NCBI GenBank assembly: GCA_004284765.1
Contig: NQJD01000031.1
Span: forward strand, 1-28,901
Direction: 5' to 3'
DNA: 28,901 nucleotides
Source of the DNA: Candidatus Electronema aureum
GTDB taxonomy: Bacteria > Desulfobacterota > Desulfobulbia > Desulfobulbales > Desulfobulbaceae
Position 1 is the first letter of the stretch; the number at the start of each line of letters is the position of its first letter. The position numbers were made by a program, and so were the translations under genes. The notes below the pieces were generated by a model. That model was not told where the DNA came from, did not search any database, and worked only from the letters and a program-made list of their open reading frames with translations. Below are positions 1-28,901 of this stretch, piece by piece.

Positions 1-154
1 ATTACATCGAACTGGCAATACGGGCTTTTCTCCGCATTGAATATCATTGTTTTGTCAAAGGAATTTCTTAGTTCGAGGCAAAGACTGCCATCATCCGTGA
101 CGCTGTTCGGGCGTATTTGACGAAACCAATTTATACGCTTGAGCCTATCAATCT

Positions 155-397: not shown

Positions 398-429
398 GTC
401 GCCTCCTTCACGGGGGCGTGGATTGAAAC
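398..429 (+). repeat. Solitary (orphan) CRISPR repeat, 32/32 identical to the array repeat and in the same orientation
   Basis: GTCGCCTCCTTCACGGGGGCGTGGATTGAAAC is read directly at 398..429. No second repeat or repeat-like sequence lies within about 35 nt on either side. It sits 51 nt upstream of the cas4 ATG. Confidence 0.95.
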
Positions 430-2264: not shown

Positions 2265-2299
2265 GTCGCCGCCCTCTTCACGAGGGCGTGGATGGAAAC
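2265..2299 (+). repeat. Degenerate CRISPR repeat (psiR2) 15 nt upstream of the cas2 start codon
   Basis: GTCGCCGCCCTCTTCACGAGGGCGTGGATGGAAAC aligns to the array repeat with a 3-nt insertion and 4 substitutions. The TTCAC loop is identical. The stem is kept as 7 Watson-Crick pairs (2270..2276 with 2282..2288) through compensatory changes. The handle GTGGATGGAAAC differs from GTGGATTGAAAC by one base. Confidence 0.75.
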
Positions 2300-2314: not shown

Positions 2315-2605
2315 ATGCTTGTTCTTGTCAGTTACGATGTCAAAACCAGTGATCCCGATGGCCCGAAACGACTGCGGCGAGTTGCCAAAATCTGCCGGGA
2401 TTACGGGCAGAGGGTGCAGTATTCGGTCTTTGAGTGCCTTGTGCCGCCGGATAAATGGGTAGTGATGCGGGCGCGGCTGATTCAGGAGATTGACGAGGAA
2501 AAGGACAGCCTGCGGTTTTATTTTCTCGGTGCCAATTGGAAAAACCGGGTTGAGCATATCGGGGCCAAAGTCGCGATTGACCAAGAAGGGCCGTTGATAG
2601 TATAG
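2315..2605 (+). CDS. cas2: CRISPR-associated endoribonuclease Cas2
   Basis: 96 aa. The N-terminus MLVLVSYDV carries the conserved Asp, and RLRRVAKICRDYGQRVQYSVFEC is the typical Cas2 ferredoxin-fold core. It lies just upstream of the leader and array. Confidence 0.95.
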   Translation: MLVLVSYDVKTSDPDGPKRLRRVAKICRDYGQRVQYSVFECLVPPDKWVVMRARLIQEIDEEKDSLRFYFLGANWKNRVEHIGAKVAIDQEGPLIV

Positions 2606-2809
2606 TTGCGAAATTGTGTTGTCGAGAAGAGAACTACGGGCGGCGCGAACCGCAAGCGAACAGGAAAAGCCGGGAGGTTCGCGGGCCGCGATATAAGGAG
2701 GTGAAAGCTGGAAAAAGCGTGTCACATGTTGGGCGAACGAAACGGAAGAACTATTGTTCGCAAAAATGCAGTAAAATGCCGAATCGCAGCCGTCAGTTGC
2801 GATTCGACA
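2606..2809 (+). promoter_or_regulatory. CRISPR leader (cas2-proximal), containing the presumed array promoter
   Basis: This is 204 bp of non-coding sequence between the cas2 stop and the first repeat. Repeat polarity (3' end ATTGAAAC, as in I-C crRNA 5' handles) makes + the transcribed strand. A candidate -10 TAAAAT is at 2772..2777, but I found no convincing -35. The track ORFs here (2614..2838, 2726..3040) run into the repeats and are not credible. Confidence 0.7.
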
Positions 2810-5800
2810 GTCGCCTCCTTCACGGGGGCGTGGATTGAAACGTCCGTAATTGTCGCGGCGGAAAAATCTGTAGCCGTGTCGCCTCCTTCACGGGGGCGTG
2901 GATTGAAACATCGGCCAAGGACATCGTGCAGGAACTCTGCGACCGTCGCCTCCTTCACGGGGGCGTGGATTGAAACTGGCACGGCGGACAGCACCAGAGA
3001 GTTGACGTTGCGTCGCCTCCTTCACGGGGGCGTGGATTGAAACTTCTTCGTGGCAGGCATACGTGCAGTCATTTCGAGTCGCCTCCTTCACGGGGGCGTG
3101 GATTGAAACTTCAGCAGGTCGCTGCTGTTGAAGATGAGGTACGTCGCCTCCTTCACGGGGGCGTGGATTGAAACACGCGGATCACGCTCGTCGTCATGCC
3201 GAACTTGGTCGCCTCCTTCACGGGGGCGTGGATTGAAACATACTCCAAGAGGTGACAGAATGAGATTTCCCGAAGTCGCCTCCTTCACGGGGGCGTGGAT
3301 TGAAACATTCCACAACTGGCAAGTGAGGTGTGAGAAATCTGTCGCCTCCTTCACGGGGGCGTGGATTGAAACGGTATGCTGTTAGTTACCTGTACGCTTT
3401 TACTTGGTCGCCTCCTTCACGGGGGCGTGGATTGAAACTTGGTTGACTGCTGGGTCGGGGATCAGCACAGACGTCGCCTCCTTCACGGGGGCGTGGATTG
3501 AAACATCCACGCCCTTGTCCAGCACCATGTCCTCGATCGTCGCCTCCTTCACGGGGGCGTGGATTGAAACGTAGCTGATCAATTCTGCCAACTGCCGCGA
3601 CTTGGTCGCCTCCTTCACGGGGGCGTGGATTGAAACACTCTTGCCCGCGCTACGGGCAGGCTCGGTAGCGTCGCCTCCTTCACGGGGGCGTGGATTGAAA
3701 CCTACTTGGGGCAATTAAACAAGCATCTGCCTTTGGTCGCCTCCTTCACGGGGGCGTGGATTGAAACAGTATCGGATGTCGGATAACTCTTGGCGCAGTC
3801 GCCTCCTTCACGGGGGCGTGGATTGAAACTGGTACTAGGTATTGGTTGCGTGCGGATGTAATAGTCGCCTCCTTCACGGGGGCGTGGATTGAAACAGTCT
3901 GTGCGCAATGATCTGATCTCTGCTGACCGTCGCCTCCTTCACGGGGGCGTGGATTGAAACTGCCGGGTTATCCCCCGTGTTTCACTTCGTGCCGTCGCCT
4001 CCTTCACGGGGGCGTGGATTGAAACCTTAGCCGCCGTCCCGCGCGGCCAAGTCTTAGTAGTCGCCTCCTTCACGGGGGCGTGGATTGAAACTAATGATAT
4101 TTTTGCTGCCGGATATATAATATCAGTCGCCTCCTTCACGGGGGCGTGGATTGAAACGGAAAACCTCTAAAGAGCTGAATCTCGAATTTGGTCGCCTCCT
4201 TCACGGGGGCGTGGATTGAAACCCAGCAGTTGTATCAGGCAATGACATGTCACCAAGTCGCCTCCTTCACGGGGGCGTGGATTGAAACTCCGGAATCCGC
4301 TGCCCCTACTGACCCGAAAAACGTCGCCTCCTTCACGGGGGCGTGGATTGAAACACACTGAAACGCACGAGGGCGACGAAATGCTGTACGTCGCCTCCTT
4401 CACGGGGGCGTGGATTGAAACCGAAGACAGACGATCAAGTCAGGATAGAGATCAAGTCGCCTCCTTCACGGGGGCGTGGATTGAAACCTCGTTGCCCTGC
4501 GCTTCCTGACCGGAGGGGATGTCGCCTCCTTCACGGGGGCGTGGATTGAAACACCGCCTCGTTAGCCTGCTCAATGACGGCGTGCTTGTCGCCTCCTTCA
4601 CGGGGGCGTGGATTGAAACTGGAAGAAGCTGGGAACAGGTATATTAGGGACAAGGGTCGCCTCCTTCACGGGGGCGTGGATTGAAACTGGTCAGCATTAG
4701 GATTGCCGTTATAAGTACCAGTCGCCTCCTTCACGGGGGCGTGGATTGAAACTTACCGCCAATGCCGAGGAACTTAACAGCGAGGAGTCGCCTCCTTCAC
4801 GGGGGCGTGGATTGAAACTTCCTGTAGCTGTAGTTCCCAAGCCGCCTCGCCGGTCGCCTCCTTCACGGGGGCGTGGATTGAAACAGCTCGGGACCAAGCT
4901 GTTTCTGTTGCGTTTAAGTCGCCTCCTTCACGGGGGCGTGGATTGAAACGTTAGAGGATGCCAATGCTCGTGCGCTGCCAATTGTCGCCTCCTTCACGGG
5001 GGCGTGGATTGAAACCCCGGCTGCCGGTTGCTTACTTTGACCACCAATTGTCGCCTCCTTCACGGGGGCGTGGATTGAAACAATTGAGCGATACTCATTA
5101 TTGCATTCTATGCCGGTCGCCTCCTTCACGGGGGCGTGGATTGAAACGTACTTAAAATTCTCCCACTCTAATATATGTAGGTCGCCTCCTTCACGGGGGC
5201 GTGGATTGAAACAGCAGGTCTTGTAAAAACGAGCTGGCGCGGTGCGGTCGCCTCCTTCACGGGGGCGTGGATTGAAACACCAGCCTGCTTGATGCCCTCT
5301 GCTCGCACCTTGTCGCCTCCTTCACGGGGGCGTGGATTGAAACCTTTTGCGCGGCCTCGGCGCGGGCCTTGGCGGCGGCAAGTCGCCTCCTTCACGGGGG
5401 CGTGGATTGAAACATCGCCTCGTTAGCCTGCTCAATGACGGTGTACGGTCGCCTCCTTCACGGGGGCGTGGATTGAAACACGGTTTCATTGCCCGTGCGA
5501 CTGGCGACCTCAAGCGTCGCCTCCTTCACGGGGGCGTGGATTGAAACCGCTGTGTGATGTTTTGCTTGCCATACACCATTGGTCGCCTCCTTCACGGGGG
5601 CGTGGATTGAAACAGTTCGCCACAGTTCAAAATTCCGGCAGGCACAAGTCGCCTCCTTCACGGGGGCGTGGATTGAAACTTGTCCCGCACACCCCAGACC
5701 TTGGCCCGACATAGACGGTCGCCTCCTTCACGGGGGCGTGGATTGAAACGGAATCTCCTATTGCCCATCCGAGCACACAGCGGTCGCCTCCTTCACGGGG

Positions 5801-8800
5801 GCGTGGATTGAAACGTACAGGCCGTTCATCGCCAGCGCAGCGGTGTATGGTCGCCTCCTTCACGGGGGCGTGGATTGAAACTGATAGAACAAAATGAAAT
5901 CCTTGCCCCAGACCGTCGCCTCCTTCACGGGGGCGTGGATTGAAACGGCCTTGAATTTAGCCTCAGCCTCCTTCGCCGCTGTCGCCTCCTTCACGGGGGC
6001 GTGGATTGAAACCAAATCGTCCCAGTCCATCTGGTTTGTTGCCCAGTCCGGTCGCCTCCTTCACGGGGGCGTGGATTGAAACTGTGTCAATAATAATCCG
6101 ATCACTCCCGGTTATGTCCGTCGCCTCCTTCACGGGGGCGTGGATTGAAACGTGCATCCGGGGAGCCAAGTACGGATGGCATCGTCGCCTCCTTCACGGG
6201 GGCGTGGATTGAAACATCGGCTCGTCAGCCTGCTCGATGGCGTGCGCCCTCGTCGCCTCCTTCACGGGGGCGTGGATTGAAACAGGTCAATATGGATCAG
6301 CTTAGGATCGGGTGAACCGTCGCCTCCTTCACGGGGGCGTGGATTGAAACCCACTGCTAAACTCCATGATTTATATATGAAGTCGTCGCCTCCTTCACGG
6401 GGGCGTGGATTGAAACAGGAGTGCTGTACTTAGGATTTGCCGGTTTAATGTCGCCTCCTTCACGGGGGCGTGGATTGAAACTTCTGATCCCGCCGCAGCT
6501 TCCGGCCCGGTCGCGTCGCCTCCTTCACGGGGGCGTGGATTGAAACCTGTTCCAGATGCTGTCCAATTTAATACCGGCTTGTCGCCTCCTTCACGGGGGC
6601 GTGGATTGAAACCTACAGCATGGGTTGACCCAGATACTGGCTGCGAGTCGCCTCCTTCACGGGGGCGTGGATTGAAACATGGTCGTCGTGGGCAGGCACC
6701 CGGTGAGGTATGTCGCCTCCTTCACGGGGGCGTGGATTGAAACAAGCTGCATTGTTGCTGATCAGCCTGCTGATTGCGTCGCCTCCTTCACGGGGGCGTG
6801 GATTGAAACTGCTGCGTTTAATGCTGGCGAGTGGAGTTATCATTGTCGCCTCCTTCACGGGGGCGTGGATTGAAACAAGCTCCTATGATGCAACACCATG
6901 CAGCATGTACCAAGTCGCCTCCTTCACGGGGGCGTGGATTGAAACTGATCCAGCTGATAACTCTGACGTTGGCTGGCTCGTCGCCTCCTTCACGGGGGCG
7001 TGGATTGAAACTTTCCAAACACAAAAAAAAACAGAAGCAAGAGAGGTCGCCTCCTTCACGGGGGCGTGGATTGAAACAGCTTGCGTGACTGGGTAAACAT
7101 CTGTAGCCACGGTCGCCTCCTTCACGGGGGCGTGGATTGAAACAAAGCTGGTGCAGCTGTAGCAGCAGAGGCTTGTGTCGCCTCCTTCACGGGGGCGTGG
7201 ATTGAAACGCGTCTGGTACGGTGGTTCAGATGTGCAGACGCGTCGCCTCCTTCACGGGGGCGTGGATTGAAACCTCAAGGAAAGCCCCATGTGGAGTCCT
7301 TTAACCGGTCGCCTCCTTCACGGGGGCGTGGATTGAAACACCGCCACGGGCATTTGATCGGATTGCATGATATCGTCGCCTCCTTCACGGGGGCGTGGAT
7401 TGAAACTTAGAATGCCAGAACGAGCGGTCAAACGCGGCTGGTCGCCTCCTTCACGGGGGCGTGGATTGAAACCGGGTTGATCAGACCACCTACGAAGGTG
7501 CGATCTAGTCGCCTCCTTCACGGGGGCGTGGATTGAAACACTTGAAAGAGCTTGACCGGTACGCATCTGGAAGTCGCCTCCTTCACGGGGGCGTGGATTG
7601 AAACTCTGTAATCTGGGGAAGGATTAAACAAAAAAGTCGCCTCCTTCACGGGGGCGTGGATTGAAACCTGCCGCGCCTTTGACATGGCGATAGATGGTGG
7701 GGTCGCCTCCTTCACGGGGGCGTGGATTGAAACCTCAGTCTCAAAGCCAGCCACAAGTCGATTACTGTCGCCTCCTTCACGGGGGCGTGGATTGAAACCT
7801 TCGTCTCCTTGTCCTGTGCCCGCAGTGCAGCTTCGTCGCCTCCTTCACGGGGGCGTGGATTGAAACCTCGCGAAAACAGTGCGGCGGACGTGCGGATATA
7901 TGTCGCCTCCTTCACGGGGGCGTGGATTGAAACTGTGGTCGACCCGAAACTGCGAAGTTGCGCTTGGTCGCCTCCTTCACGGGGGCGTGGATTGAAACCC
8001 GTCCGGGACAGATTGCAAACTGGGCAACAAATGTCGCCTCCTTCACGGGGGCGTGGATTGAAACATTCAGCAGGGCCGCTGCCTCATCTAACCGCCCGGT
8101 CGCCTCCTTCACGGGGGCGTGGATTGAAACCGCGACGCGAACCTCACGCCGTCGAGCGATGATAGGTCGCCTCCTTCACGGGGGCGTGGATTGAAACTCG
8201 CAATCTCTTGACATAGTTGGCGACGGTGTGTTTGTCGCCTCCTTCACGGGGGCGTGGATTGAAACAGGTGCTTCTGCGCAGCCTCGATATGCGGATTGTC
8301 GTCGCCTCCTTCACGGGGGCGTGGATTGAAACACTGCCCGCCGCCATAGGCAGGGCAAGCGGCGGAGTCGCCTCCTTCACGGGGGCGTGGATTGAAACCA
8401 GTCGCCTGCCTTGGACAGCCGCGCGGCTTCCGTCGCCTCCTTCACGGGGGCGTGGATTGAAACGCTAATAAAGATGAAGAAATACGGCATGTCGCTGGGT
8501 CGCCTCCTTCACGGGGGCGTGGATTGAAACGTTCGCTTAATGCCATTATAGCCCCCATTATGCTGTCGCCTCCTTCACGGGGGCGTGGATTGAAACACTG
8601 GATGCTGCAATACTGGCCGTCGCTTTGGCGAGTCGCCTCCTTCACGGGGGCGTGGATTGAAACACGTGCTCGGCAGTCACCTCTTTGACGCGGCTGTACG
8701 TCGCCTCCTTCACGGGGGCGTGGATTGAAACGCGCTGGCTGTTCTGCTGCCTCATTCCGTTTTTGTCGCCTCCTTCACGGGGGCGTGGATTGAAACCTAC

Positions 8801-11800
8801 GCTGCTGCCGCCAAAGCAGCAGCAGCGGCGTCGCCTCCTTCACGGGGGCGTGGATTGAAACCAGTCGAATCAGATAGCCAGCCTTCACTTTGCGCGTCGC
8901 CTCCTTCACGGGGGCGTGGATTGAAACACGGACGGGCGCCGCAGGCAACGCGGGCTGCTTCGTCGCCTCCTTCACGGGGGCGTGGATTGAAACATTGGCT
9001 TTGATCGCAAGATACCTTTCCCGCAGGTCGCCTCCTTCACGGGGGCGTGGATTGAAACCTCCGCCTTGCGCAGGGATAACATCCAGCTCTTGTCGCCTCC
9101 TTCACGGGGGCGTGGATTGAAACGGAAAATCGTCTCAATCCTGTGCGGCTGCGTCTTGGTCGCCTCCTTCACGGGGGCGTGGATTGAAACGTCCATACTT
9201 ACCTCTCTCTGCTGATTGACCTCTGTCGCCTCCTTCACGGGGGCGTGGATTGAAACATCGCCGGTGCCAAGAATGGAGTTTTTGACGTCGCCTCCTTCAC
9301 GGGGGCGTGGATTGAAACAGTATCCCCAGCGGGATTGCAGGCGGCTGCTGCCAGTCGCCTCCTTCACGGGGGCGTGGATTGAAACCCCCGTTTGGCTGCG
9401 AACGAGGGAACAGGCTAAAACGTCGCCTCCTTCACGGGGGCGTGGATTGAAACTGGGGCCACACGATGCGCTGTGGCGTAGTAGTAGGTCGCCTCCTTCA
9501 CGGGGGCGTGGATTGAAACTGAGTCCAAATGGACTGTCAGCGGTGCGCTGCTCCGTCGCCTCCTTCACGGGGGCGTGGATTGAAACGTACGGCAAGATTG
9601 TCGCGGTCAAAGAGACTGTGCGTCGCCTCCTTCACGGGGGCGTGGATTGAAACCGCTCAACTTCAGCGCGGTTGTTATTGACTGACCGTCGCCTCCTTCA
9701 CGGGGGCGTGGATTGAAACTGGGCTATCCGCGCTGAACCGGCCTTAATCTCTGTCGCCTCCTTCACGGGGGCGTGGATTGAAACAGACCAGCAGCGAGGG
9801 ATTGCTTTGAAGAAACGGTCGCCTCCTTCACGGGGGCGTGGATTGAAACCTCCGGCAAGGAGGGAGGATATGCGGGATGCCACGTCGCCTCCTTCACGGG
9901 GGCGTGGATTGAAACACCATTGAGCACTGTCTTGGTGATCAGCACGGCGAGTCGCCTCCTTCACGGGGGCGTGGATTGAAACACCATCAGCGACATATCA
10001 CAGGTTTGTGCGGTGTGTCGCCTCCTTCACGGGGGCGTGGATTGAAACGAAGAGTCTGCCGCTAAGTCTGGGGTGATATTAGTCGCCTCCTTCACGGGGG
10101 CGTGGATTGAAACAGTTCGCCGTCCGCTCATCTTCAACCTCCTTGAGCGTCGCCTCCTTCACGGGGGCGTGGATTGAAACTGTTCTAATCGGAAGAGCGC
10201 GCGCATTGCCTTCCAGTCGCCTCCTTCACGGGGGCGTGGATTGAAACCTGCGCAACAGATGAGTGTGCGGGTGTCTCGGAGGTCGCCTCCTTCACGGGGG
10301 CGTGGATTGAAACCATCTATTCGCCCTCCTTCGGCAGCCGGGTGCGCGTCGCCTCCTTCACGGGGGCGTGGATTGAAACGATGATTAATAATCTTGATTG
10401 GCTGCCTTCCTACGTCGCCTCCTTCACGGGGGCGTGGATTGAAACACCTTTTCTATCGATACCAGCTAACCAATTGGCTGTCGCCTCCTTCACGGGGGCG
10501 TGGATTGAAACCAAATGTGGACGATACCAAGCGAGAGCGGCAACGGTCGCCTCCTTCACGGGGGCGTGGATTGAAACTGATCCAGCTGATAATTCCGATG
10601 TTGGTTGGCTGTCGCCTCCTTCACGGGGGCGTGGATTGAAACATCCATATCACCTCCGCGCATAAGCAGCTTTGCCGTCGCCTCCTTCACGGGGGCGTGG
10701 ATTGAAACACTGGACGGTCACGCTAAAGAGGAGGACGGCAAAGTCGCCTCCTTCACGGGGGCGTGGATTGAAACTTGGTCGGAGCACTGATCAGGGGGAG
10801 GATTGCAGGTCGCCTCCTTCACGGGGGCGTGGATTGAAACCCGCCGCTGCCGTCCTCCTCAACCCGGAACAGCAGTCGCCTCCTTCACGGGGGCGTGGAT
10901 TGAAACAACGTTAATCCTACTTGAGGGCATTATGTTTAGGCGTCGCCTCCTTCACGGGGGCGTGGATTGAAACACTCGACTGGTTGATCAACGGGAAAGA
11001 ATAAAAAGTCGCCTCCTTCACGGGGGCGTGGATTGAAACAAATCCCCGCTGCGGTCGATTTTGACTGAGGGCGGTGGTCGCCTCCTTCACGGGGGCGTGG
11101 ATTGAAACGTTCTGCCGCCGACAATCTGGTCGCATTATCGCGTCGCCTCCTTCACGGGGGCGTGGATTGAAACTGTCTCCTCGTTGGTATTGCTGTTTTT
11201 AATCTTGTCGCCTCCTTCACGGGGGCGTGGATTGAAACAAAGTGCCCCTGACTTCCTCCGATCCCGGCAAGGGTCGCCTCCTTCACGGGGGCGTGGATTG
11301 AAACTTTCCAGACGTGGCAGGATTTTGGGGTTCGTTTCGTGTCGCCTCCTTCACGGGGGCGTGGATTGAAACAGAGCGGAAGTTTATCAGGATACTCAAG
11401 CGTAGGTCGCCTCCTTCACGGGGGCGTGGATTGAAACAGAACAAATATTCTTCATATTTTCATTGTACATGTCGCCTCCTTCACGGGGGCGTGGATTGAA
11501 ACATTAGCAGGAATTATTAAGGAACCCTGTTTAAAGGTCGCCTCCTTCACGGGGGCGTGGATTGAAACTTTATGGCAGCATCATTGTGTCGTTCTAATGC
11601 GGTCGCCTCCTTCACGGGGGCGTGGATTGAAACTACAATTTCGACGAGTTGGTGATTGGCAATGCAGGTCGCCTCCTTCACGGGGGCGTGGATTGAAACT
11701 GCCATTTTCGTCACTCCGGGAACTCTGTTGCTGGTCGCCTCCTTCACGGGGGCGTGGATTGAAACATCAACCGGGCTGTATCAACCAGCGGCTTTGCGCT

Positions 11801-14800
11801 CGTCGCCTCCTTCACGGGGGCGTGGATTGAAACGTAGCTGCCTGCCGCGCCGTTGACGTGGCGGTAGGTCGCCTCCTTCACGGGGGCGTGGATTGAAACA
11901 CGTTCCAGCCCCCTGTCGCGGGGGCTGGATGCGGTCGCCTCCTTCACGGGGGCGTGGATTGAAACTCATAGCTGTCCGCGTCCTGCACAATCCGCGTAAA
12001 GTCGCCTCCTTCACGGGGGCGTGGATTGAAACTGTATCTGCTGCTGCCAGCTCGCCGCCACAGCAGTCGCCTCCTTCACGGGGGCGTGGATTGAAACTGC
12101 TGATTGATCTCTGCGCCTCTGTCAACTAACCATGTCGCCTCCTTCACGGGGGCGTGGATTGAAACGGCAGCCGGGTGCGCACCCGGCCCGCCGGGTGAAG
12201 TCGCCTCCTTCACGGGGGCGTGGATTGAAACCCCAGCGATTCGGGCGCGGAACAACACCACTTTGGCGTCGCCTCCTTCACGGGGGCGTGGATTGAAACT
12301 TTGCCATCTTGGTCAACGGATCAGGTAGGTCAAGTCGCCTCCTTCACGGGGGCGTGGATTGAAACCCGGCAATTGGCGCGGCCTGCTCCAGCAGCACATG
12401 TCGCCTCCTTCACGGGGGCGTGGATTGAAACCTATCTCAATTCCCGTTTACTGCGCCGCGATAGAGTCGCCTCCTTCACGGGGGCGTGGATTGAAACTGA
12501 TAGACCAAAAATACCGGCAGCTATTGGCCCGTCGCCTCCTTCACGGGGGCGTGGATTGAAACCAAAATGCTGATAATTTTGACCCAGCACAAGTTGCGGT
12601 CGCCTCCTTCACGGGGGCGTGGATTGAAACGGGCCGCCCGCAGAAGTGGGCCAAATTGAAGAAGGTCGCCTCCTTCACGGGGGCGTGGATTGAAACATCA
12701 CCACGCCAACAAGCTGGCTCGCATCAGCGGGGTCGCCTCCTTCACGGGGGCGTGGATTGAAACACCAGCGGCAGCGGAGATGCAGCGTGGGAGCTGGTCG
12801 CCTCCTTCACGGGGGCGTGGATTGAAACCGGTTGCGGAAGAAATCCAGAGAGCAACCGCGCTGGTCGCCTCCTTCACGGGGGCGTGGATTGAAACGTATG
12901 CCCGCCCATAGCAAGCCAGCCGGGTGCCCAGTCGCCTCCTTCACGGGGGCGTGGATTGAAACAGGGGCGGCGGTATCGGTTTCACGTCCTCCTGTGTCGC
13001 CTCCTTCACGGGGGCGTGGATTGAAACATCAGCGCACCGGCCCCGGCAGACTAATTGGAGGTCGCCTCCTTCACGGGGGCGTGGATTGAAACACCGGCGA
13101 GCAGGTCAAGGACTGGGTGGAGCAGGTCGCCTCCTTCACGGGGGCGTGGATTGAAACATGCCACCATGCCCCGCACCCTACTAAAACTCACGTCGCCTCC
13201 TTCACGGGGGCGTGGATTGAAACAACCATCCTTGGAATCATCTGGCGGAGCTGACCAGTCGCCTCCTTCACGGGGGCGTGGATTGAAACAGGGGATGAGG
13301 TGGTGAAGTACCTCGCCGCAGAGGTCGCCTCCTTCACGGGGGCGTGGATTGAAACCGCTCGGCCGCGCGGGGCTGTGGACTGTCAAAGGTCGCCTCCTTC
13401 ACGGGGGCGTGGATTGAAACCCGCCAGCCACGTTGTGAGCTATACGCTGACCAGTCGCCTCCTTCACGGGGGCGTGGATTGAAACCCGCCAGCCACGTTG
13501 TGAGCTATACGCTGACCAGTCGCCTCCTTCACGGGGGCGTGGATTGAAACTGCGGGTGTTGATGTGCAATCTATTATCCCAAAAAGTCGCCTCCTTCACG
13601 GGGGCGTGGATTGAAACTCGTGATAATCGCTTCAAGCCGCTGGGCCGTGGTCGTCGCCTCCTTCACGGGGGCGTGGATTGAAACAGCCAGCTCTTCGATA
13701 TGCCGAGATTTTTCGCTGGTCGCCTCCTTCACGGGGGCGTGGATTGAAACTCAAAAACGCAGTACTGCCGAACACTACAGAGAGTCGCCTCCTTCACGGG
13801 GGCGTGGATTGAAACAGCTTGCCGCCCGCGTTGTCACCGGCAATGAGATGGTCGCCTCCTTCACGGGGGCGTGGATTGAAACGTGGATGAGGCCGCCTGC
13901 ACCAGCGGCGGCCTCTGGTCGCCTCCTTCACGGGGGCGTGGATTGAAACATCGGATGGCGGGCTATGTGGTTTTTCGCCAGCAGTCGCCTCCTTCACGGG
14001 GGCGTGGATTGAAACCGCGCTGGAACAGGCCATGAACGCGCTGTCCGGTGGTCGCCTCCTTCACGGGGGCGTGGATTGAAACGCCCCCGCTTTGGCCTTC
14101 GCCCGCTGCACCGCCGTCGCCTCCTTCACGGGGGCGTGGATTGAAACTTCGTCCCGCTGCTCGGCCACAACAGCAGCGGAAAGTCGCCTCCTTCACGGGG
14201 GCGTGGATTGAAACAAAATTTGGCGCAGAAGTTCGGCGCAAATTGTGCGTCGCCTCCTTCACGGGGGCGTGGATTGAAACCCGTGCGCATTGAAATCGTG
14301 GTGGCTGAATCATGTCGCCTCCTTCACGGGGGCGTGGATTGAAACTTTATCAGGGCGCATTTTATGGCGACGTGTACGGGTCGCCTCCTTCACGGGGGCG
14401 TGGATTGAAACATGCGCTGGGCACCGCCTCCGCCCAGCGCATGAAGTCGCCTCCTTCACGGGGGCGTGGATTGAAACACAATCCACATCCGCCACGCTGG
14501 GATATTGGCCGCAGTCGCCTCCTTCACGGGGGCGTGGATTGAAACGGCTCCTGCCTTTGGATTTGGAAATTCTATGCCGTCGCCTCCTTCACGGGGGCGT
14601 GGATTGAAACACGGCGGCGGATTTGGCATCTGGGCTGCCCCTGGTCGCCTCCTTCACGGGGGCGTGGATTGAAACCAGTTGTTTTTTTTCATTGCCCGCC
14701 GCAGCCGGTGTCGCCTCCTTCACGGGGGCGTGGATTGAAACACGGGCCGCGTCAGCACGCACTTGCGCGGCTGCGTCGCCTCCTTCACGGGGGCGTGGAT

Positions 14801-17800
14801 TGAAACGCCAAGAGCCGCGATGTCGCGGTTGGCAGTTAGGTCGCCTCCTTCACGGGGGCGTGGATTGAAACAGTGAGCTGGCAGATGTATGCGTATCCAC
14901 CTGCGTCGCCTCCTTCACGGGGGCGTGGATTGAAACTGCTGCCGTCGCACTGACCGGCAGCAGAAGAAGAACGTCGCCTCCTTCACGGGGGCGTGGATTG
15001 AAACTTCCGCTCTGCACCGCAGCAGCAGCACCTCAACGTCGCCTCCTTCACGGGGGCGTGGATTGAAACTCGTTTTTCGGAACGATGACTCCTTGCGGCC
15101 AGCGTCGCCTCCTTCACGGGGGCGTGGATTGAAACCCTGCGCTGCATGTCACCATGCCGCCGCCGAACAGTCGCCTCCTTCACGGGGGCGTGGATTGAAA
15201 CATCAACGAATATCCAATCGTATTCGCTATCTTCGTCGCCTCCTTCACGGGGGCGTGGATTGAAACTGTCCGTGAGCATCGCTGGGTACGCAAATCTGCT
15301 GTCGCCTCCTTCACGGGGGCGTGGATTGAAACTAATGGGAAAAGCGCGCGCGTTGTCCTCTAATGAAGGTCGCCTCCTTCACGGGGGCGTGGATTGAAAC
15401 GCCAGTGAAATGCTTGGAGCACATCACCCGTTTGTCGCCTCCTTCACGGGGGCGTGGATTGAAACCCGCGCTGCTGCCGTACCAGCGCGGGTGGATTGGT
15501 CGCCTCCTTCACGGGGGCGTGGATTGAAACGGACGGCTCGGCTGGGACAAGACGCAGCCGCACCGGTCGCCTCCTTCACGGGGGCGTGGATTGAAACGTG
15601 TTGGACTGTATGTTGTCTGCTCTGGCTGTCGTCGCCTCCTTCACGGGGGCGTGGATTGAAACTGGTCGAGGAAAAACGGCCTTCCGCCAGCCCGATGTCG
15701 CCTCCTTCACGGGGGCGTGGATTGAAACTTGATAATAAGAAATAAAGTGTGGTCACTTGTTGTCGCCTCCTTCACGGGGGCGTGGATTGAAACGTGGGGA
15801 CGTACACCGTCATTGAGCAGGCTGACGAGTCGCCTCCTTCACGGGGGCGTGGATTGAAACAGGCAATTTGCAGCCTCCTGCCGTACAGGAAACGTCGCCT
15901 CCTTCACGGGGGCGTGGATTGAAACACCTGCCGCCAGCACCTGCTCTGCGTCTGCTGCGCGTCGCCTCCTTCACGGGGGCGTGGATTGAAACGTGCATGT
16001 GCGGATGCCACAAACCGCTGTTTTGAGTCGCCTCCTTCACGGGGGCGTGGATTGAAACCTGCTGAAGGGAGCGACGGCGGTACTGGACAGAGGTCGCCTC
16101 CTTCACGGGGGCGTGGATTGAAACGTACCATCTATCGCCACGTCAAAGGCGCGGCAGGGTCGCCTCCTTCACGGGGGCGTGGATTGAAACTTTTTCCTGC
16201 TGAAAAGGATTAGGCCCCAGACAGGTCGCCTCCTTCACGGGGGCGTGGATTGAAACGGGATCAGCCCCTGCCCGGATCAGGTGATGGATGCGGTCGCCTC
16301 CTTCACGGGGGCGTGGATTGAAACCTCTCATAGGCACCGTTTAGCTGCGTGACGCAGGTCGCCTCCTTCACGGGGGCGTGGATTGAAACGATTCCGGTAC
16401 AGACGCTGGCTACCGAGGTCAGTCGCCTCCTTCACGGGGGCGTGGATTGAAACTCCTCTTCCTGCTCCTACTGCTGTCCCTTTTGCGTCGCCTCCTTCAC
16501 GGGGGCGTGGATTGAAACGTCTTCGCGCACTTTTGCTCCCGCTTTAGTGAAAGTCGCCTCCTTCACGGGGGCGTGGATTGAAACTTTATACTAATCAAGC
16601 ATTTGCCTTTGGCGTTAGTCGCCTCCTTCACGGGGGCGTGGATTGAAACTGCCAAGTCCGGTAAGGAACCTGAGCAAGGTCGCCTCCTTCACGGGGGCGT
16701 GGATTGAAACATCGGAATCCAAGCAATCCCAAGCAGGAAGCGTACAGTCGCCTCCTTCACGGGGGCGTGGATTGAAACCTGTAGAAGTATCAGTACATTG
16801 TTTAGCACCGAGTCGCCTCCTTCACGGGGGCGTGGATTGAAACCTTTCACGCCGGGCAGCAGCATGAGCAAACGGCGGTCGCCTCCTTCACGGGGGCGTG
16901 GATTGAAACCTTGGCGTGGCCGTCCAAGGAGAAGGCATCCAAGTCGCCTCCTTCACGGGGGCGTGGATTGAAACCCTGCGATGGTTTTGAGATAATCATT
17001 AGATATAGGTCGCCTCCTTCACGGGGGCGTGGATTGAAACATGAAACTCGTCGCCTGATCTTCGACAAGGATGGTCGCCTCCTTCACGGGGGCGTGGATT
17101 GAAACAGATGAAGAGGAGGAAAAAAGCGATTTGAACGCAGGTCGCCTCCTTCACGGGGGCGTGGATTGAAACCGGTCAGGTGTCTGCGAAGGTCGCCGCC
17201 GCTGTTGGTCGCCTCCTTCACGGGGGCGTGGATTGAAACAGCACCCAGCGAACGCACTCGTCATAGGCCCTTAGTCGCCTCCTTCACGGGGGCGTGGATT
17301 GAAACTTGGTGGAAATCATGACCGCGCCAGTGCAACAGAGTCGCCTCCTTCACGGGGGCGTGGATTGAAACTGGAAAACACCGAGGAAAGTTTCGTTCTG
17401 GAAGAGTCGCCTCCTTCACGGGGGCGTGGATTGAAACAACAGGTAGCGGCGGCTGAAGATGAGGTACGTCTCGTCGCCTCCTTCACGGGGGCGTGGATTG
17501 AAACGCACATATAATCTGAGGGTGTCATATTCAACGCCGTCGCCTCCTTCACGGGGGCGTGGATTGAAACGTAATCCTCGCGTCCGTCGGTTGCTGTATG
17601 CCCGTCGCCTCCTTCACGGGGGCGTGGATTGAAACGTCCCCGTCAAAATCGAAATCACAGTCTTTAATATGTCGCCTCCTTCACGGGGGCGTGGATTGAA
17701 ACTCGTCTCTCAGCGTGGATCCAAAACTGGTGGCAGTCGCCTCCTTCACGGGGGCGTGGATTGAAACCTCCTCACGCAATCCTGATGTTGACCTTCAGCA

Positions 17801-20800: not shown

Positions 20801-23800
20801 CCTCAGTCTTTCGTTTGATAGAAGGTCGCCTCCTTCACGGGGGCGTGGATTGAAACCTGATAGCGAAGACCGCCGAGGAAAATCAGGTCACGTCGCCTCC
20901 TTCACGGGGGCGTGGATTGAAACATACTTTGATGATGATCATAAAAATAATCGTCCCGTCGCCTCCTTCACGGGGGCGTGGATTGAAACTATGTTGGTAA
21001 CGTGCAGACGATCACCGATCTTGCGTCGCCTCCTTCACGGGGGCGTGGATTGAAACAGGCTGTTACTGATGCTCATAATCCTTTTCCGTGTCGCCTCCTT
21101 CACGGGGGCGTGGATTGAAACTGAGAGCCGTAGCAAAAACGCGTTGCAGGCGGCAGTCGCCTCCTTCACGGGGGCGTGGATTGAAACTTGGACAAGTGCG
21201 CTACGCGATACCATGACGCTGGTCGCCTCCTTCACGGGGGCGTGGATTGAAACTCCTTAGGATTGTTGAGTTGTGGTTGTTTGGTTGGTCGCCTCCTTCA
21301 CGGGGGCGTGGATTGAAACTTGGACAAGTGCGCTACGCGATACCATGACGCTGGTCGCCTCCTTCACGGGGGCGTGGATTGAAACCAATCTATCCTTGGC
21401 TCTGGTGAGAGCGACATACAGTCGCCTCCTTCACGGGGGCGTGGATTGAAACTTCTGAGTCACGCCCATAAAAAAGGCTTTGAAGGTCGCCTCCTTCACG
21501 GGGGCGTGGATTGAAACTTTTGCTCACTTTGGACTGAAGAGGAGTCATTGGTCGCCTCCTTCACGGGGGCGTGGATTGAAACAAACTCTGTTTCAACGTC
21601 TACGCTTATGCACTCGTCGCCTCCTTCACGGGGGCGTGGATTGAAACTCGGCTTTTTGCGCTGTGGTCGCTGTCTGTTTGGCGTCGCCTCCTTCACGGGG
21701 GCGTGGATTGAAACACAGATCCCCGTACCGCATCTTGCGCAGTACATGTCGCCTCCTTCACGGGGGCGTGGATTGAAACGCCGGTGCGTTGCCGCTGTCT
21801 GCTGCGCCCTCTGGTCGCCTCCTTCACGGGGGCGTGGATTGAAACCTGATCCAACTGATAATTCTGACGTTGGCTGGCTGTCGCCTCCTTCACGGGGGCG
21901 TGGATTGAAACTCTCCCAGTTCCCGCCGCTGCCGTCCTCCTCAATGTCGCCTCCTTCACGGGGGCGTGGATTGAAACATAGACAGCGTGCAAATCAGCGA
22001 CGCGAGGGGATGTCGCCTCCTTCACGGGGGCGTGGATTGAAACTTCTTTGGTCGGCGTTCAGATACCTGCAATCACGTCGCCTCCTTCACGGGGGCGTGG
22101 ATTGAAACTATGAGAGAACGCACTGGAGAAGAACTGCGTCAGGTCGCCTCCTTCACGGGGGCGTGGATTGAAACGTCCTCACGAAATCCTGATGCTGACC
22201 TTCAGCAAGTCGCCTCCTTCACGGGGGCGTGGATTGAAACACCACGATCAATCATATCTGGTATCTCTTTGCCGTCGCCTCCTTCACGGGGGCGTGGATT
22301 GAAACACAGTTTGTACGGATTTAAACACGAAACAGTGTCGGTCGCCTCCTTCACGGGGGCGTGGATTGAAACTCCTGCCGGATGTAGTTGCCAGCCGGTG
22401 AGAGCGTCGCCTCCTTCACGGGGGCGTGGATTGAAACTGTGTCTGCGGCGGCTTGTCGGCTTGGTGCTTCGTCGCCTCCTTCACGGGGGCGTGGATTGAA
22501 ACTGGGCGGTTGTAGCGCGATTCTCCCACGGTTGGAGTCGCCTCCTTCACGGGGGCGTGGATTGAAACATATAGGGCAGGGGGTTGCCCTTGCCCCTTTG
22601 CTCGTCGCCTCCTTCACGGGGGCGTGGATTGAAACATTCCTTTGTGTCAGTGTGAAATAGACGCAAACAGGGGTCGCCTCCTTCACGGGGGCGTGGATTG
22701 AAACGTCCGCTTCTGCTTCTGGGTTTGCTCGGCTGTGGGTCGCCTCCTTCACGGGGGCGTGGATTGAAACAGCAGGAGAATCAGCAAAGATATCGGTCAT
22801 CACCGTCGCCTCCTTCACGGGGGCGTGGATTGAAACCTTGATCATCACTCGCTGCCCTGTCTAAGACCAGTCGCCTCCTTCACGGGGGCGTGGATTGAAA
22901 CATCAGCCGGGATATCGTCATCGGTGTCATAGGCTTGTCGCCTCCTTCACGGGGGCGTGGATTGAAACCTCGATCGTTGGTACATGCTGCACGGTGTTGC
23001 TGTCGCCTCCTTCACGGGGGCGTGGATTGAAACATCACGATGCAGCCAGTATTTGCACTCCATGTCTGTCGCCTCCTTCACGGGGGCGTGGATTGAAACC
23101 AGATACTGGCATCCGGTATCCTTGTCGACGAGGTCGCCTCCTTCACGGGGGCGTGGATTGAAACTGACGATGACCGCCCTCATTGGGATGAGGATTGAGT
23201 CGCCTCCTTCACGGGGGCGTGGATTGAAACGTTGCTTGCAATAAGCAACAAGCTCTTGGCTATGGTCGCCTCCTTCACGGGGGCGTGGATTGAAACGCCG
23301 TAGGTTACAATGGTATGACAGCTTCCATCGTCGCCTCCTTCACGGGGGCGTGGATTGAAACATCATGGCCTTGCGGTACATCGCCAGAGGCTACGTCGCC
23401 TCCTTCACGGGGGCGTGGATTGAAACAAGCAGTTAGCTGTATCACAGGTACCCTGCCCTGTCGCCTCCTTCACGGGGGCGTGGATTGAAACAGCGAAGCG
23501 GTGAAGAGTGGGGAGGATGGCGGTGTCGCCTCCTTCACGGGGGCGTGGATTGAAACTTAATTCCGATGATGAGGATGATGACGGCGTCGCCTCCTTCACG
23601 GGGGCGTGGATTGAAACGTAAAAAAAGATGGCAGGGTTTGGGGCGGCAGCCCCGTCGCCTCCTTCACGGGGGCGTGGATTGAAACAAAGCACCCATTACA
23701 GCGTTGTTAGACCAGATGCGTCGCCTCCTTCACGGGGGCGTGGATTGAAACGTACCCCTTTGTACATAGTGCTAATACTCGCCGGTCGCCTCCTTCACGG

Positions 23801-26800
23801 GGGCGTGGATTGAAACCGGCTTGCGGTGGCTGGGTTTCTGCTCCCGGCCCTGTCGCCTCCTTCACGGGGGCGTGGATTGAAACCTGGCTTACAAAGATAC
23901 TGAATATGTAGTTGACAGTCGCCTCCTTCACGGGGGCGTGGATTGAAACTTGGGCTGGGCCAGGGCGCATGGCGTACACAACTTGTCGCCTCCTTCACGG
24001 GGGCGTGGATTGAAACTCACTGTCACACAGGTGGTTGACATGGTGCTGAATGTCGCCTCCTTCACGGGGGCGTGGATTGAAACTGTCCTGGCCTTACCAC
24101 CATGCAAATGGATCGGTGTCGCCTCCTTCACGGGGGCGTGGATTGAAACTTTTTCGCTTTGATAACGACCATGAGCGTAATAGTCGCCTCCTTCACGGGG
24201 GCGTGGATTGAAACCAGTCAGGCATGATTCGGGGTGATCTGTTTGGGGTGTCGCCTCCTTCACGGGGGCGTGGATTGAAACCAGTCAAGTCCTTCTGCGT
24301 CTCCTCCGTTTTGTGTGTCGCCTCCTTCACGGGGGCGTGGATTGAAACTCATGAGTCAGCTTGCAGTACTTGGCGCGGAACGTCGCCTCCTTCACGGGGG
24401 CGTGGATTGAAACAGGGTGGAGTCCGTCCTTCCCTGCGTATCCTACCGTCGCCTCCTTCACGGGGGCGTGGATTGAAACCTTGGACATCTTGCTAACAAT
24501 AGCGTCCTGCATAGGTCGCCTCCTTCACGGGGGCGTGGATTGAAACGTTAGAACCAACAGCACGACTTCTTTCTAACGAGGTCGCCTCCTTCACGGGGGC
24601 GTGGATTGAAACACCGCCTCGTCAGCTTGCTCAATGACGGCGTTCGTCGCCTCCTTCACGGGGGCGTGGATTGAAACGAACTCAGCACCATAAGGACAAT
24701 CTGCGTTGGCTGTCGCCTCCTTCACGGGGGCGTGGATTGAAACGTTAGAACCAACAGCACGACTTCTTTCTAACGAGGTCGCCTCCTTCACGGGGGCGTG
24801 GATTGAAACCTGCGCCGCCGCTCTCTTGTGGTATCAGCCGCAGTCGCCTCCTTCACGGGGGCGTGGATTGAAACTCAACCCGGAGCAACAGGCCGCTGTT
24901 GATCACCGTCGCCTCCTTCACGGGGGCGTGGATTGAAACGTCGCTATGGTCGCCTTGCTGATCTGCCTGCTTTGTCGCCTCCTTCACGGGGGCGTGGATT
25001 GAAACCCCGTCACCGCCCTGTCCAGAGCCGCCAGTCCCGTCGCCTCCTTCACGGGGGCGTGGATTGAAACAACGCAATCCTGTAATGGGGTAACAGTAGT
25101 ATTGGGTCGCCTCCTTCACGGGGGCGTGGATTGAAACAACGCAATCCTGTAATGGGGTAACAGTAGTATTGGGTCGCCTCCTTCACGGGGGCGTGGATTG
25201 AAACTCTTTAACGCCGGGCAGCAGCATGAGCAGACGGCGGTCGCCTCCTTCACGGGGGCGTGGATTGAAACCACACAGAGACGCATGAGGGAGATGAAAT
25301 GCTGTTGTCGCCTCCTTCACGGGGGCGTGGATTGAAACTTAAGACTTACAGAAAAACGGTTCATGATAGTACGTCGCCTCCTTCACGGGGGCGTGGATTG
25401 AAACCCACAGAGCGCAAGGAGGGCGAATATGTGGCTTCGTCGCCTCCTTCACGGGGGCGTGGATTGAAACTAATCGGCAGCGCGCGGGCGTTGCCTTCCA
25501 ACGGTCGCCTCCTTCACGGGGGCGTGGATTGAAACAAGATGCCCGGAAAATTGACATTGAAGTCCGTGTCGCCTCCTTCACGGGGGCGTGGATTGAAACG
25601 CCACGCTCTCTGTTGAGGCCCGCGAACGCATGGTGTCGCCTCCTTCACGGGGGCGTGGATTGAAACGCTGGAATAAATTACGCCAGCCGCATAAGCAAAG
25701 GTCGCCTCCTTCACGGGGGCGTGGATTGAAACCAGCTCCAGGCGCACCGGCAGCGCAAAGCCGGTTGTCGCCTCCTTCACGGGGGCGTGGATTGAAACCG
25801 GTGCGGCGGCGGCAGCCGGAACAGTCCGCACGTTGGTCGCCTCCTTCACGGGGGCGTGGATTGAAACGCAGCCTGCGATTAGCGTGAAACGCTCCATTTT
25901 AGGGTCGCCTCCTTCACGGGGGCGTGGATTGAAACGTTGGTGAGATGGACGGAAACGATGGGCAGGAGCGTCGCCTCCTTCACGGGGGCGTGGATTGAAA
26001 CGTTCCTCGGTTTTGATAAAAAAAAACCACGTCGCCTCCTTCACGGGGGCGTGGATTGAAACTTAAGCCTGGGGGGGCTGTTGCAGCCTCTGTCGCGTCG
26101 CCTCCTTCACGGGGGCGTGGATTGAAACTGTTGACATTGAAACGCGCAATCTCACGCCTGAGCGTCGCCTCCTTCACGGGGGCGTGGATTGAAACAACAT
26201 TCATCGCACGCATAATATCTTGGTTGATTGTCGCCTCCTTCACGGGGGCGTGGATTGAAACAGCAACCTCATCGGGATAGATTGCTAATTGTGGTTCGTC
26301 GCCTCCTTCACGGGGGCGTGGATTGAAACTTTTTTATTCCAAACAAGCCAAAGTTCTTTTCCGTCGCCTCCTTCACGGGGGCGTGGATTGAAACTCATAG
26401 GACACCTCCTTGTTGTGTCTCACTTAAGTCGCCTCCTTCACGGGGGCGTGGATTGAAACATTTAGCATCTGCCATTTGCTTGAAGCGAGGCAGTCGCCTC
26501 CTTCACGGGGGCGTGGATTGAAACTTCCAAGGGAGTCCTTTGCCTGCGTCACGCAGCTAGTCGCCTCCTTCACGGGGGCGTGGATTGAAACCCCAAGGCC
26601 CGCAAGGTGTCCAGCCTCTTCTCAGGTCGCCTCCTTCACGGGGGCGTGGATTGAAACCCCTTACGCAATAAAGCTGCGCAAGGCCGTGTCTGTCGCCTCC
26701 TTCACGGGGGCGTGGATTGAAACAACGTAATAAGGGCTATTACAGAGCCAATTGACCAGTCGCCTCCTTCACGGGGGCGTGGATTGAAACAGTACATCTT

Positions 26801-28767
26801 GCCACGTTGAAACGGTCTATGCAAGTCGCCTCCTTCACGGGGGCGTGGATTGAAACACATGCCCTCCTTGCTGTGCAGATCAAACAGCACGTCGCCTCCT
26901 TCACGGGGGCGTGGATTGAAACAGCATCTTTGGCGACCTCAACCTGCCGGACATCAGTCGCCTCCTTCACGGGGGCGTGGATTGAAACACCCTGACCTCT
27001 TTTTTCGGGCAAGTTGCTCTTGTCGCCTCCTTCACGGGGGCGTGGATTGAAACTCTCCCTGAAGCTCGTCGTGCAATTTGCGCCCCGTCGCCTCCTTCAC
27101 GGGGGCGTGGATTGAAACACCCCAAGCAGGTCAGGTTCAATTCCTGATCGTGTCGCCTCCTTCACGGGGGCGTGGATTGAAACAGGCTATGGAAACCCCG
27201 GTGCATCAGTACGGCGATGTCGCCTCCTTCACGGGGGCGTGGATTGAAACACCTTGTTTGCGAAACGCAGGAGCGCAACCTGAGTCGCCTCCTTCACGGG
27301 GGCGTGGATTGAAACTCGCTGGGCATCAAGCTATGGTTGACAATACGATGTCGCCTCCTTCACGGGGGCGTGGATTGAAACATGGAGTTGGCTCCGGTAA
27401 AATAATCTATATTATGTCGCCTCCTTCACGGGGGCGTGGATTGAAACATAGTTGCAAGTAGATGAATTTGACGTGTCAAACGTCGCCTCCTTCACGGGGG
27501 CGTGGATTGAAACTGTTGGTTCTTGCAGGCGATGGTTGATCTGGCTGGTCGCCTCCTTCACGGGGGCGTGGATTGAAACACCAAGAAACAGGATGCCGAA
27601 GCAGTATCATGAGGTCGCCTCCTTCACGGGGGCGTGGATTGAAACGTTGTCAGTCATTTACTATCTCCAGATAAAGGTTGTCGCCTCCTTCACGGGGGCG
27701 TGGATTGAAACGATTAAGCCGTCGAACATCACCGATCACCGCACTGTCGCCTCCTTCACGGGGGCGTGGATTGAAACTTCCTTCTGTTGGTTCTGTGTCT
27801 GCTGCGGCTTGGTCGCCTCCTTCACGGGGGCGTGGATTGAAACTCGGTGCATCTGATTTTGTTAGCAAGCATTCTTACGTCGCCTCCTTCACGGGGGCGT
27901 GGATTGAAACTCTTAGATTGACGTGGGTCTTATTGTCAATCTAGTCGCCTCCTTCACGGGGGCGTGGATTGAAACTCTCCCGGCCTTGCCCACCTTTTTG
28001 TTTTCTTAAGTCGCCTCCTTCACGGGGGCGTGGATTGAAACCAGTCTGCGGCGGTGATCAGGCAAATTTGATGATCGTCGCCTCCTTCACGGGGGCGTGG
28101 ATTGAAACACATTGTAGCCGGATACCGTGGGTAGAGGAACTGTCGCCTCCTTCACGGGGGCGTGGATTGAAACTACGGGATGCGTTGCCGGTGTTATTGT
28201 TCTTTAAGTCGCCTCCTTCACGGGGGCGTGGATTGAAACACCTTCATAGGTTATCAAGTCACGGATAAAGGCAAGTCGCCTCCTTCACGGGGGCGTGGAT
28301 TGAAACAGTGGAAAAGCTGAAGGTGAAGTAACCCAAAGTTGTCGCCTCCTTCACGGGGGCGTGGATTGAAACTTCTCGCATTATATTTCATTTTAACGGC
28401 TGCTCGTCGCCTCCTTCACGGGGGCGTGGATTGAAACATGGTCTGCCATTGGTGTATCCGGGCCGCAGTTCGTCGCCTCCTTCACGGGGGCGTGGATTGA
28501 AACAGGCACTGATACAGTCCAGCAGGCCGCTTATAATGTCGCCTCCTTCACGGGGGCGTGGATTGAAACCAGCCGCAAATCCCTGAAGAACATAAGATTG
28601 CCAGTCGCCTCCTTCACGGGGGCGTGGATTGAAACTTGATTGATAATTTGGCATCAGCACAAGGACTTGTCGCCTCCTTCACGGGGGCGTAGATTGAAAC
28701 AGATTCAGCACGATCAGAGGAACAAACAACATGACGTCGCCTCCTTCACGGGGGCGTGGATTGAAAC
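2810..28767 (+). CRISPR. CRISPR array, type I-C-like 32-nt repeat GTCGCCTCCTTCACGGGGGCGTGGATTGAAAC; 394 repeats / 393 spacers by manual parse
   Basis: I tracked every repeat start from 2810 (R1) to 28736 (R394). The mean unit is 65.97 bp. Spacers are 29-38 nt, mostly 33-34. The repeat has a 7-bp stem (CGCCTCC/GGGGGCG) with a TTCAC loop and the GTGGATTGAAAC tail shared by known I-C repeats. The array follows cas4-cas1-cas2. Overlapping spacers imply a TTC PAM. Confidence 0.99.
28669..28700 (+). repeat. Only variant repeat noticed in the array (penultimate repeat R393, G23A: ...GCGTAGATTGAAAC)
   Basis: Position 28691 is A where all other repeats have G. The change lies in the 11-nt 5'-handle portion, outside the hairpin. 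The terminal repeat (28736..28767) is perfect. Confidence 0.9.
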
Positions 28768-28901
28768 AAGGTTAACCTAATGTGCAACTCTTTTAAACTT
28801 GATTAGGCAGCAATCAAGCCATCCAAGTCAAGTGGAGGGCGGTTATAGACCAAATTAAGGAAGACACAAACAGTGTGCGCCAAAATTTTACGAATCAGAC
28901 G

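Follow-up and report, generated by a model that had tools for sequence, protein, structure and literature searches.

Contig NQJD01000031.1 of Candidatus Electronema aureum (assembly GCA_004284765.1), a stretch of 28,901 nucleotides that we call the window, consists for the most part of a single CRISPR array. The locus raises the question of whether so long an array is real and, if so, whether it still belongs to a working immune system. Our answer, to which we assign a probability of about 0.78, is that it is a genuine type I-C array of strain GS of this freshwater cable bacterium and, most probably, an archive of past infections that was orphaned recently and that intact adaptation genes still flank. 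The array is type I-C by descent, and what remains at the locus falls short of a complete I-C system.

We searched the window with regular expressions for the 32-nt repeat GTCGCCTCCTTCACGGGGGCGTGGATTGAAAC, allowing up to 6 substitutions, and found 396 copies, all on the + strand. The array comprises 394 of these over a span of 25,958 bp, and 393 of the 394 are exact. The sole variant is located at the leader-distal end, and its substitution falls within the part of the repeat that would become the 5' handle. Between the repeats lie 393 spacers of 29-38 nt with a mode of 34 nt (33 nt, n = 117; 34 nt, n = 164; 35 nt, n = 69), and 389 of the 393 are unique. Direct repeats of constant length separated by mostly unique spacers of similar length are what defines a CRISPR array, and the arrangement cannot have arisen by chance. 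A first-pass annotation of this DNA had counted 394 repeats of 32 nt and 393 spacers over 25,958 bp, and the parse reproduced that count exactly, together with the four duplicated units and the single repeat polymorphism reported there. The annotation's statement that nothing interrupts the array also held: because every spacer is between 29 and 38 nt long, the intervals are too short for an insertion sequence (IS) element, an internal leader or repeats of a second type. Two repeat copies outside the array, one exact (398-429) and one degenerate (2268-2299), had not been listed. Tandem Repeats Finder broke the array into 99 overlapping rows, which made its count unusable, and the regular-expression parse was used instead.

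The duplicated units are four exact pairs of spacers (161/162, 279/281, 330/333 and 338/339). Two of these pairs are non-adjacent, with the patterns A-B-A and A-B-C-A, and repeated capture of one protospacer fits them at least as well as unequal crossing-over, from which A-B-A-B would be expected. Seven spacers are only 29-31 nt long. Runs of A occur in two of the short spacers, nine in spacer 352 (26002-26030) and six in spacer 73 (7605-7635), and these two might be homopolymer errors that survived Nanopore polishing rather than truly short spacers.

The length of the array is very unlikely to be an artefact of assembly. Assemblers struggle with 394 identical repeats, so that one array might be expanded or several shorter ones merged, and the four duplicated units and the few short homopolymer spacers, such as spacer 352 with its A9 run, could be errors of polishing or collapse. 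However, the unique spacers anchor each unit, and no internal leader-like gap is present. The window is identical over the overlap to OW818638.1 (GCA_942492785.1), the closed genome of Ca. Electronema aureum GS, which is a circular assembly of size-selected Nanopore reads with Illumina polishing (Sereika et al. 2023, PMC10030654). The count of 393 spacers is also quoted independently for the GS array, in a passage of PMC11920609 that cites Kjeldsen et al. 2019. Because of the 389 unique anchors and the closed long-read genome, we give the artefact almost no credence.

The array and its size are already in the literature; it is genuine and extreme, and neither unique nor the largest. Typical bacterial arrays hold fewer than 50 spacers, and the longest array in the complete genomes of CRISPRCasdb, that of Haliangium ochraceum DSM 14365, holds 587 (PMC7145573, PMC8047081). 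Among 48 related I-C loci that we retrieved, the largest complete array (one whose end falls within the retrieved sequence) has about 91 repeats (L062), and the first-pass placement of the GS array in the extreme upper tail is borne out by both comparisons. CRISPR goes unmentioned in the two closed-genome papers, and the literature searched on this array gives the count only, with no mention of the subtype, the TTC motif, solo repeats or missing interference genes. What the present analysis adds is the I-C class, the TTC motif, the orientation, a correction concerning repeat identity, and the recognition of an adaptation-only remnant beside a giant array.

The type I-C ancestry of the array is evident in the adjoining genes, the repeat and the protospacer-adjacent motif (PAM). 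The type I-C adaptation genes cas4-cas1-cas2 adjoin the array, and the nearest relatives of their Cas1 are in two freshwater cable bacteria, Ca. Electronema nielsenii F5 (96% identity) and Ca. Electronema sp. PJ (95%). When the leader is compared to that of PJ, a promoter block at the cas2 end and the last ~55 nt are nearly invariant. A sigma-70-like site, TTGACC-18-TATAGT (2577-2606), lies in a block that is invariant between GS and PJ. As is usual for type I-C, the repeat has a G+C-rich hairpin, with 7 bp in its stem and 5 nt in its loop (-12.4 kcal/mol), followed by an 11-nt 3' tail ending ATTGAAAC, and this architecture is common to the 48 related I-C loci. A hairpin with an 11-nt tail is the form recognised by Cas5c in type I-C systems. 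Matches to the Rfam family CRISPR-DR9 are below threshold, at 19-24 bits vs a gathering score of 45.

The PAM was read from the array itself, without an external protospacer. We took pairs of spacers that overlap by at least 13 nt and read the 3 nt located 5' of one spacer from the sequence of its partner. TTC stands directly 5' of the spacer in 11 of 28 such overlaps, when about 0.4 would be expected by chance. TTC on the 5' side of the protospacer is the type I-C PAM, and in this array it is observed directly. Its place on that side also bears out the orientation of the array.

The GS locus lacks the interference half of a type I-C system. In the PJ locus (contig L002) cas3, cas5, cas8c and cas7 come first, and a degenerate repeat and then a gene with a Fic domain separate them from cas4, cas1 and cas2. 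A second related locus, L086, carries cas5, cas8c, cas7, a mini-array of two repeats, Fic, PIN-Phd on the opposite strand, cas4, cas1 and cas2. Two short contigs agree as far as they go, L087 with cas7, Fic, PIN-Phd and the start of cas4, and L088 with cas5, cas8c, cas7 and Fic. For GS we examined L085, 11.7 kb of the chromosome that reaches upstream of the window (window position 1 = L085 8895). The 9.3 kb upstream of cas4 contain an IS701-family transposase, small open reading frames, BrnT/BrnA, a phage-type integrase and Lon, and the I-C signature genes cas3, cas5c, cas8c and cas7 are not found at the locus. Searches of these 9.3 kb with Cas3, Cas5, Cas8c, Cas7 and Fic of L002 as queries (tblastn) found no trace of them. 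The GS chromosome is likewise absent from the best 120 relatives of Cas7 (at least 78% identity) and from the best 120 relatives of Cas8c (at least 62% identity), although GS Cas1 is present in the same index.

The point at which these genes were lost appears to be preserved. The IS701 transposase (L085 8054-8965; NF049921, E 1e-103) lies between 17-nt terminal inverted repeats at L085 8013-8029 and 9054-9070, with no target-site duplication at the element. Nucleotide homology to L086 starts at L085 9071 (window 177), the base directly after the IS terminal repeat. At the protein level, the alignment of GS Phd with L086 Phd holds to ...KEYPDW and then enters the end of the IS. From the sequence comparison, the IS701/phd junction is probably the footprint of an IS-associated deletion, by which the interference genes were lost together with the mini-array, Fic and the PIN toxin. 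Just to the left of the IS701 element, a second pair of inverted repeats, 24 nt long, brackets ~1.07 kb (L085 6923-7991). This may be a remnant of another mobile element, in a region that also contains BrnT/BrnA and the integrase.

We propose the following history. Cas1-Cas2, with Cas4 choosing the PAM, would have inserted single fragments of 33-36 nt beside the leader, each insertion duplicating the leader-proximal repeat. The fragments would derive from DNA with a 5'-TTC PAM, and many would trace back, time after time, to the same protein-coding regions in invaders that are related but have diverged. An IS701-associated deletion would then have taken the interference half of the locus, namely cas3-cas5-cas8c-cas7, the mini-array, the Fic toxin-like gene and the PIN toxin. 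Type I-C systems have no Cas6, and their precursor transcript is cut by Cas5c. Without Cas5c the transcript would remain uncut into CRISPR RNAs (crRNAs), and without Cascade-Cas3 there would be no targeting. Since type I-C lacks Cas6 and cas5c, cas7, cas8c and cas3 are gone, neither processing nor use of the array would be possible. Repeats that are nearly perfect and adaptation genes that are intact and constrained suggest a recent loss, and the deletion might have arisen in the enrichment culture. The anatomy of the array, its source, the PAM and the lack of these genes at the locus are seen directly in the sequence; from these observations we infer the genome-wide absence of the effector, the timing of its loss and the lack of function.

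The uniformity of the repeats does not date the growth of the array. The first-pass annotation had taken the near-identity of the repeats as a sign of recent rapid growth or strong homogenisation, a suggestion that the relatives do not support. The 32-nt repeat is 100% identical in PJ (L002, 28 copies to the end of the contig) and in L086, despite synonymous divergence (dS) of cas4, cas1 and cas2 from those of GS of 0.36-0.63 in PJ and 1.4-2.4 in L086, at ratios of non-synonymous to synonymous divergence (dN/dS) of 0.04-0.09. Repeat identity in diverged loci is therefore not a clock. The new repeat made at each insertion is a copy of the leader-proximal repeat, and the uniform repeats reflect this copying and strong functional constraint on the 7-bp hairpin and 11-nt handle, rather than recent growth or homogenisation.

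Variation among the spacers themselves points to long accumulation, in the course of which a recurring group of mobile elements was met again and again. An all-against-all comparison of the spacers yielded 44 related pairs. Families of spacers (for example 27/40/197/331, 63/118/289 and 74/137/202) hit one protospacer or overlapping protospacers, on both strands and in diverged alleles. Differences within families are 3 nt apart, as at positions 16, 19, 22 and 28 between spacers 63 and 118, which is how synonymous variation spaces the changes in a coding target. Family members are spread over the array between spacers 5 and 379, and within one family they can be as many as 300 units apart. Re-acquisition after escape would be expected to leave such a pattern, and a recent burst would not. 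The G+C content of the spacers also drifts along the array, from 0.59 in spacers 148-196 (13421-16124) to 0.49-0.50 in spacers 246-294 and 344-392 (25471-28668), with 0.53 between, a drift that suggests a change over time in the target populations sampled.

Searches for the targets and for relatives of the array gave negative results. The array was compared with phage and plasmid collections by megablast, as the first-pass annotation had suggested, and 25 kb of it matched none of 50,697 phage and 72,556 plasmid records. Five degenerate patterns derived from recurrent spacer families had no exact match in IMG/VR. In the JGI metagenomes the exact repeat was found on four contigs only, all of them arrays with a different consensus repeat, and no array of a sister strain was recovered. 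Spacer content was also compared with that of relatives, and neither the leader-proximal spacers of L002 and L086 nor those of any other locus retrieved recur in the GS array. The spacers have no match to the flanks of the window or to the 11.7 kb of GS chromosome upstream, a test of low power.

Several points weigh against an orphaned array. The foreign origin of the spacers is deduced from the PAM and allelic variation, and the targets were found nowhere searched. The genome-wide absence of the effector would follow from the best 120 Cas7 and the best 120 Cas8c relatives, and GS may carry, elsewhere in its genome, a second I-C system of greater divergence or a CRISPR system of another type. 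A further I-C cas1 of PJ lies on a separate contig (L012). Intact cas4, cas1 and cas2 under purifying selection (dN/dS 0.07-0.09) and pristine repeats also fit a system in use. Apart from the first, these points can be turned into a case for an array that is still a working immune memory, served by an effector encoded elsewhere (a second I-C or compatible system), with only the local genes lost; the conserved promoter-like site and leader blocks would suit that explanation as well, as would the 393 perfect repeats. We nonetheless consider it unlikely, given a clean IS-associated deletion at the locus and a GS chromosome that supplies no Cas7 or Cas8c among the relatives listed above while its Cas1 is indexed.

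A different relation between the loss and the size of the array is that the array grew large because the effector was lost, leaving Cas4-Cas1-Cas2 to add spacers, self-derived or redundant ones included, with no autoimmune cost and no counter-selection. An intact adaptation module does adjoin a locus without interference genes, and no complete array in the 48 related loci is even a quarter as long as this one. But the re-acquisition of mismatched protospacers on both strands with a sharp TTC PAM resembles primed adaptation, which needs Cascade and Cas3, and the pristine repeats argue that the loss was very recent relative to the build-up of the array. The lack of spacers matching the 11.7 kb of GS chromosome points the same way, within the low power of that test. 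Growth after the loss is distinctly improbable in our judgement, and we retain the orphaned array as the preferred explanation.

Transcription of the array is predicted from the promoter-like site at 2577-2606; in a type I-C system Cas5c would process the transcript to crRNAs with an 11-nt 5' handle. The first-pass annotation had asked whether the distal spacers are expressed at all, a question that is overtaken by the absence of interference and processing genes at the locus. Promoters inside the array were considered and rejected. Every repeat carries TTGAAA, a 5/6 match to the -35 hexamer, and this explains an excess of promoter-like sites over plain shuffles. When the repeats were held fixed and the spacers shuffled, the 14 repeat-spacer units observed with a sigma-70-like promoter were at the level of chance (15.5 +/- 3.9).

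Features of the window, with positions in the window and strand
Feature	Positions	Strand	Description
IS701-family right end	1-176	+	transposase C-terminus ends at 71; 17-nt terminal inverted repeat at 160-176
truncated phd (PhdYefM-family antitoxin)	155-370	-	PF02604, E 1.2e-7; homology to relatives ends at about codon 64, at the IS
solo CRISPR repeat	398-429	+	exact, 32/32; between the divergent genes phd and cas4, same sense as cas4
cas4	481-1110	+	TIGR00372, E 8e-43; PF01930; dN/dS 0.073 vs Electronema sp. PJ
cas1, type I-C	1107-2135	+	TIGR03640 cas1_DVULG, 506 bits (cut-off 385); dN/dS 0.079 vs PJ
degenerate standalone repeat	2268-2299	+	5 mismatches; ends 15 nt before the cas2 start codon
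cas2	2315-2605	+	TIGR01573, E 1.6e-19; PF09827; dN/dS 0.088 vs PJ
leader	2606-2809	+	204 nt; 87% identical to the leader of Electronema sp. PJ; repeat-proximal blocks conserved
CRISPR array, type I-C	2810-28767	+	394 repeats and 393 spacers; transcription predicted left to right
variant repeat	28669-28700	+	penultimate copy, sole variant; G>A at repeat position 23 (window 28691)
trailer	28768-28901	+	AACCTAATGTGCAACTCTTT common to the end of Ca. Electronema nielsenii F5 contig L001

The two repeats outside the array are standalone repeats, with equivalents in L001, L002, L015 and L086. The exact copy sits between the start codon of phd (370, - strand) and that of cas4 (481). It is flanked by promoter-like sites, one on the - strand from 463 to 435 (TTGACA-17-TATGAT, 11/12 matches) and one on the + strand at 360-388, and it lies within the 5' untranslated region of phd predicted from the strong site at 463-435. 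The equivalent phd/cas4 intergenic region of L086 contains no repeat. The degenerate copy is held in the cas1-cas2 intergenic region (2136-2314, 179 bp) and retains the same 7-bp stem-loop through a compensatory change of C-G to U-A; it may be a processing or binding site for Cas5c on the cas mRNA. Repeat-like elements also occur upstream of cas2 or downstream of cas1 in L001, L002 and L015, and in most relatives cas1 and cas2 are adjacent. The mini-array of L086 (3908-4005), located between the cas7 stop codon and the Fic gene, is made up of two degenerate repeats with a 33-nt spacer between them. A mini-array is present at the same site in L087 (~1882), and L002 retains only one degenerate repeat there (8488-8520). 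Neither the flanks of the solo repeats nor the L086 mini-array spacer has a seed match with a TTC PAM in the ~12 kb of L085 and L086 searched, as a CreA/CreR-like regulator would. Because a promoter match with a TTC PAM is absent, a regulatory function of the solo repeats and mini-array is only putative here.

Toxin or toxin-antitoxin cargo recurs at the cas7-cas4 junction in I-C loci of Desulfobulbaceae and relatives: Fic in L002, L010, L004, L001 and L009, PIN-Phd in L013, L006, L086 and L087, and a divergent Fic in L063, L034, L030 and L057. The cas1-cas2 intergenic region of PJ (L002 11090-11400) is 468 bp long and contains tandem units of ~60 nt (…GAGGCATTCGCTGTTTCAAACGAGGCGTTTGA…). The leader of L086 (7646-7829) holds an extra exact repeat and a degenerate repeat, which bracket a block that is conserved at window ~2645-2690. 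In F5, contig L001 (2145-2211) passes from cas1 and a degenerate repeat directly into a match to the window trailer, which leaves that contig with no cas2, no leader and no array at all. Either a deletion in F5 or a chimera of assembly or amplification would account for this layout.

The size of the array is not new in itself, but its context could matter: a record-class array with intact adaptation genes and missing interference genes. In its 393 entries the array keeps a record of the mobile elements that attacked an uncultured, centimetre-long multicellular bacterium, and its spacers could serve to fish the viruses of cable bacteria from sediment metagenomes. The locus also offers a natural test of how fast an orphaned array decays, of whether adaptation continues without interference, and of whether toxin cargo at the cas7-cas4 junction guards the effector genes against loss. 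A bolder scenario, which we hold to be quite unlikely, is that a strain with one of the longest arrays known lost Cascade, Cas3, a Fic toxin-like gene controlled by the mini-array and the PIN toxin in a single IS701-associated deletion, and that Cas4-Cas1-Cas2 may still be adding spacers. If this were true, the joint removal of the effector and a putative addiction module would explain why the loss was tolerated, spacers could be added without an autoimmune penalty, and the array would be an unchecked recorder rather than an immune organ.

The standalone repeats and mini-arrays described by Shmakov et al. 2023 (PMC10120712) resemble those reported here in that repeats outside the array lie in cas intergenic regions, beside toxin or antitoxin cargo, and the L086 mini-array, directly upstream of Fic, resembles the Cascade-repressed toxin modules CreTA/CrePA. 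The solo repeat at 398-429 differs from the degenerate mini-arrays of that study in being perfect. The canonical I-C (Dvulg) loci of Desulfobulbaceae, represented by PJ L002 and L086, share with GS the identical 32-nt repeat and the same order of leader, cas4, cas1 and cas2, and PJ Cas1 is 95% identical to its GS counterpart. These relatives keep cas3-cas5-cas8c-cas7 and Fic or PIN-Phd upstream of cas4, where GS has IS701 and a truncated phd, and complete arrays in related I-C loci do not exceed about 91 repeats, whereas the GS array has 394. The published array of Ca. Electronema aureum GS is the same object as the array in the window, with an exactly matching spacer count. A parallel in size is the array of Haliangium ochraceum DSM 14365, which is about 50% longer; like that of Electronema, it is a single very long array, far above the usual count of fewer than 50 spacers, in a bacterium with a complex multicellular lifestyle.

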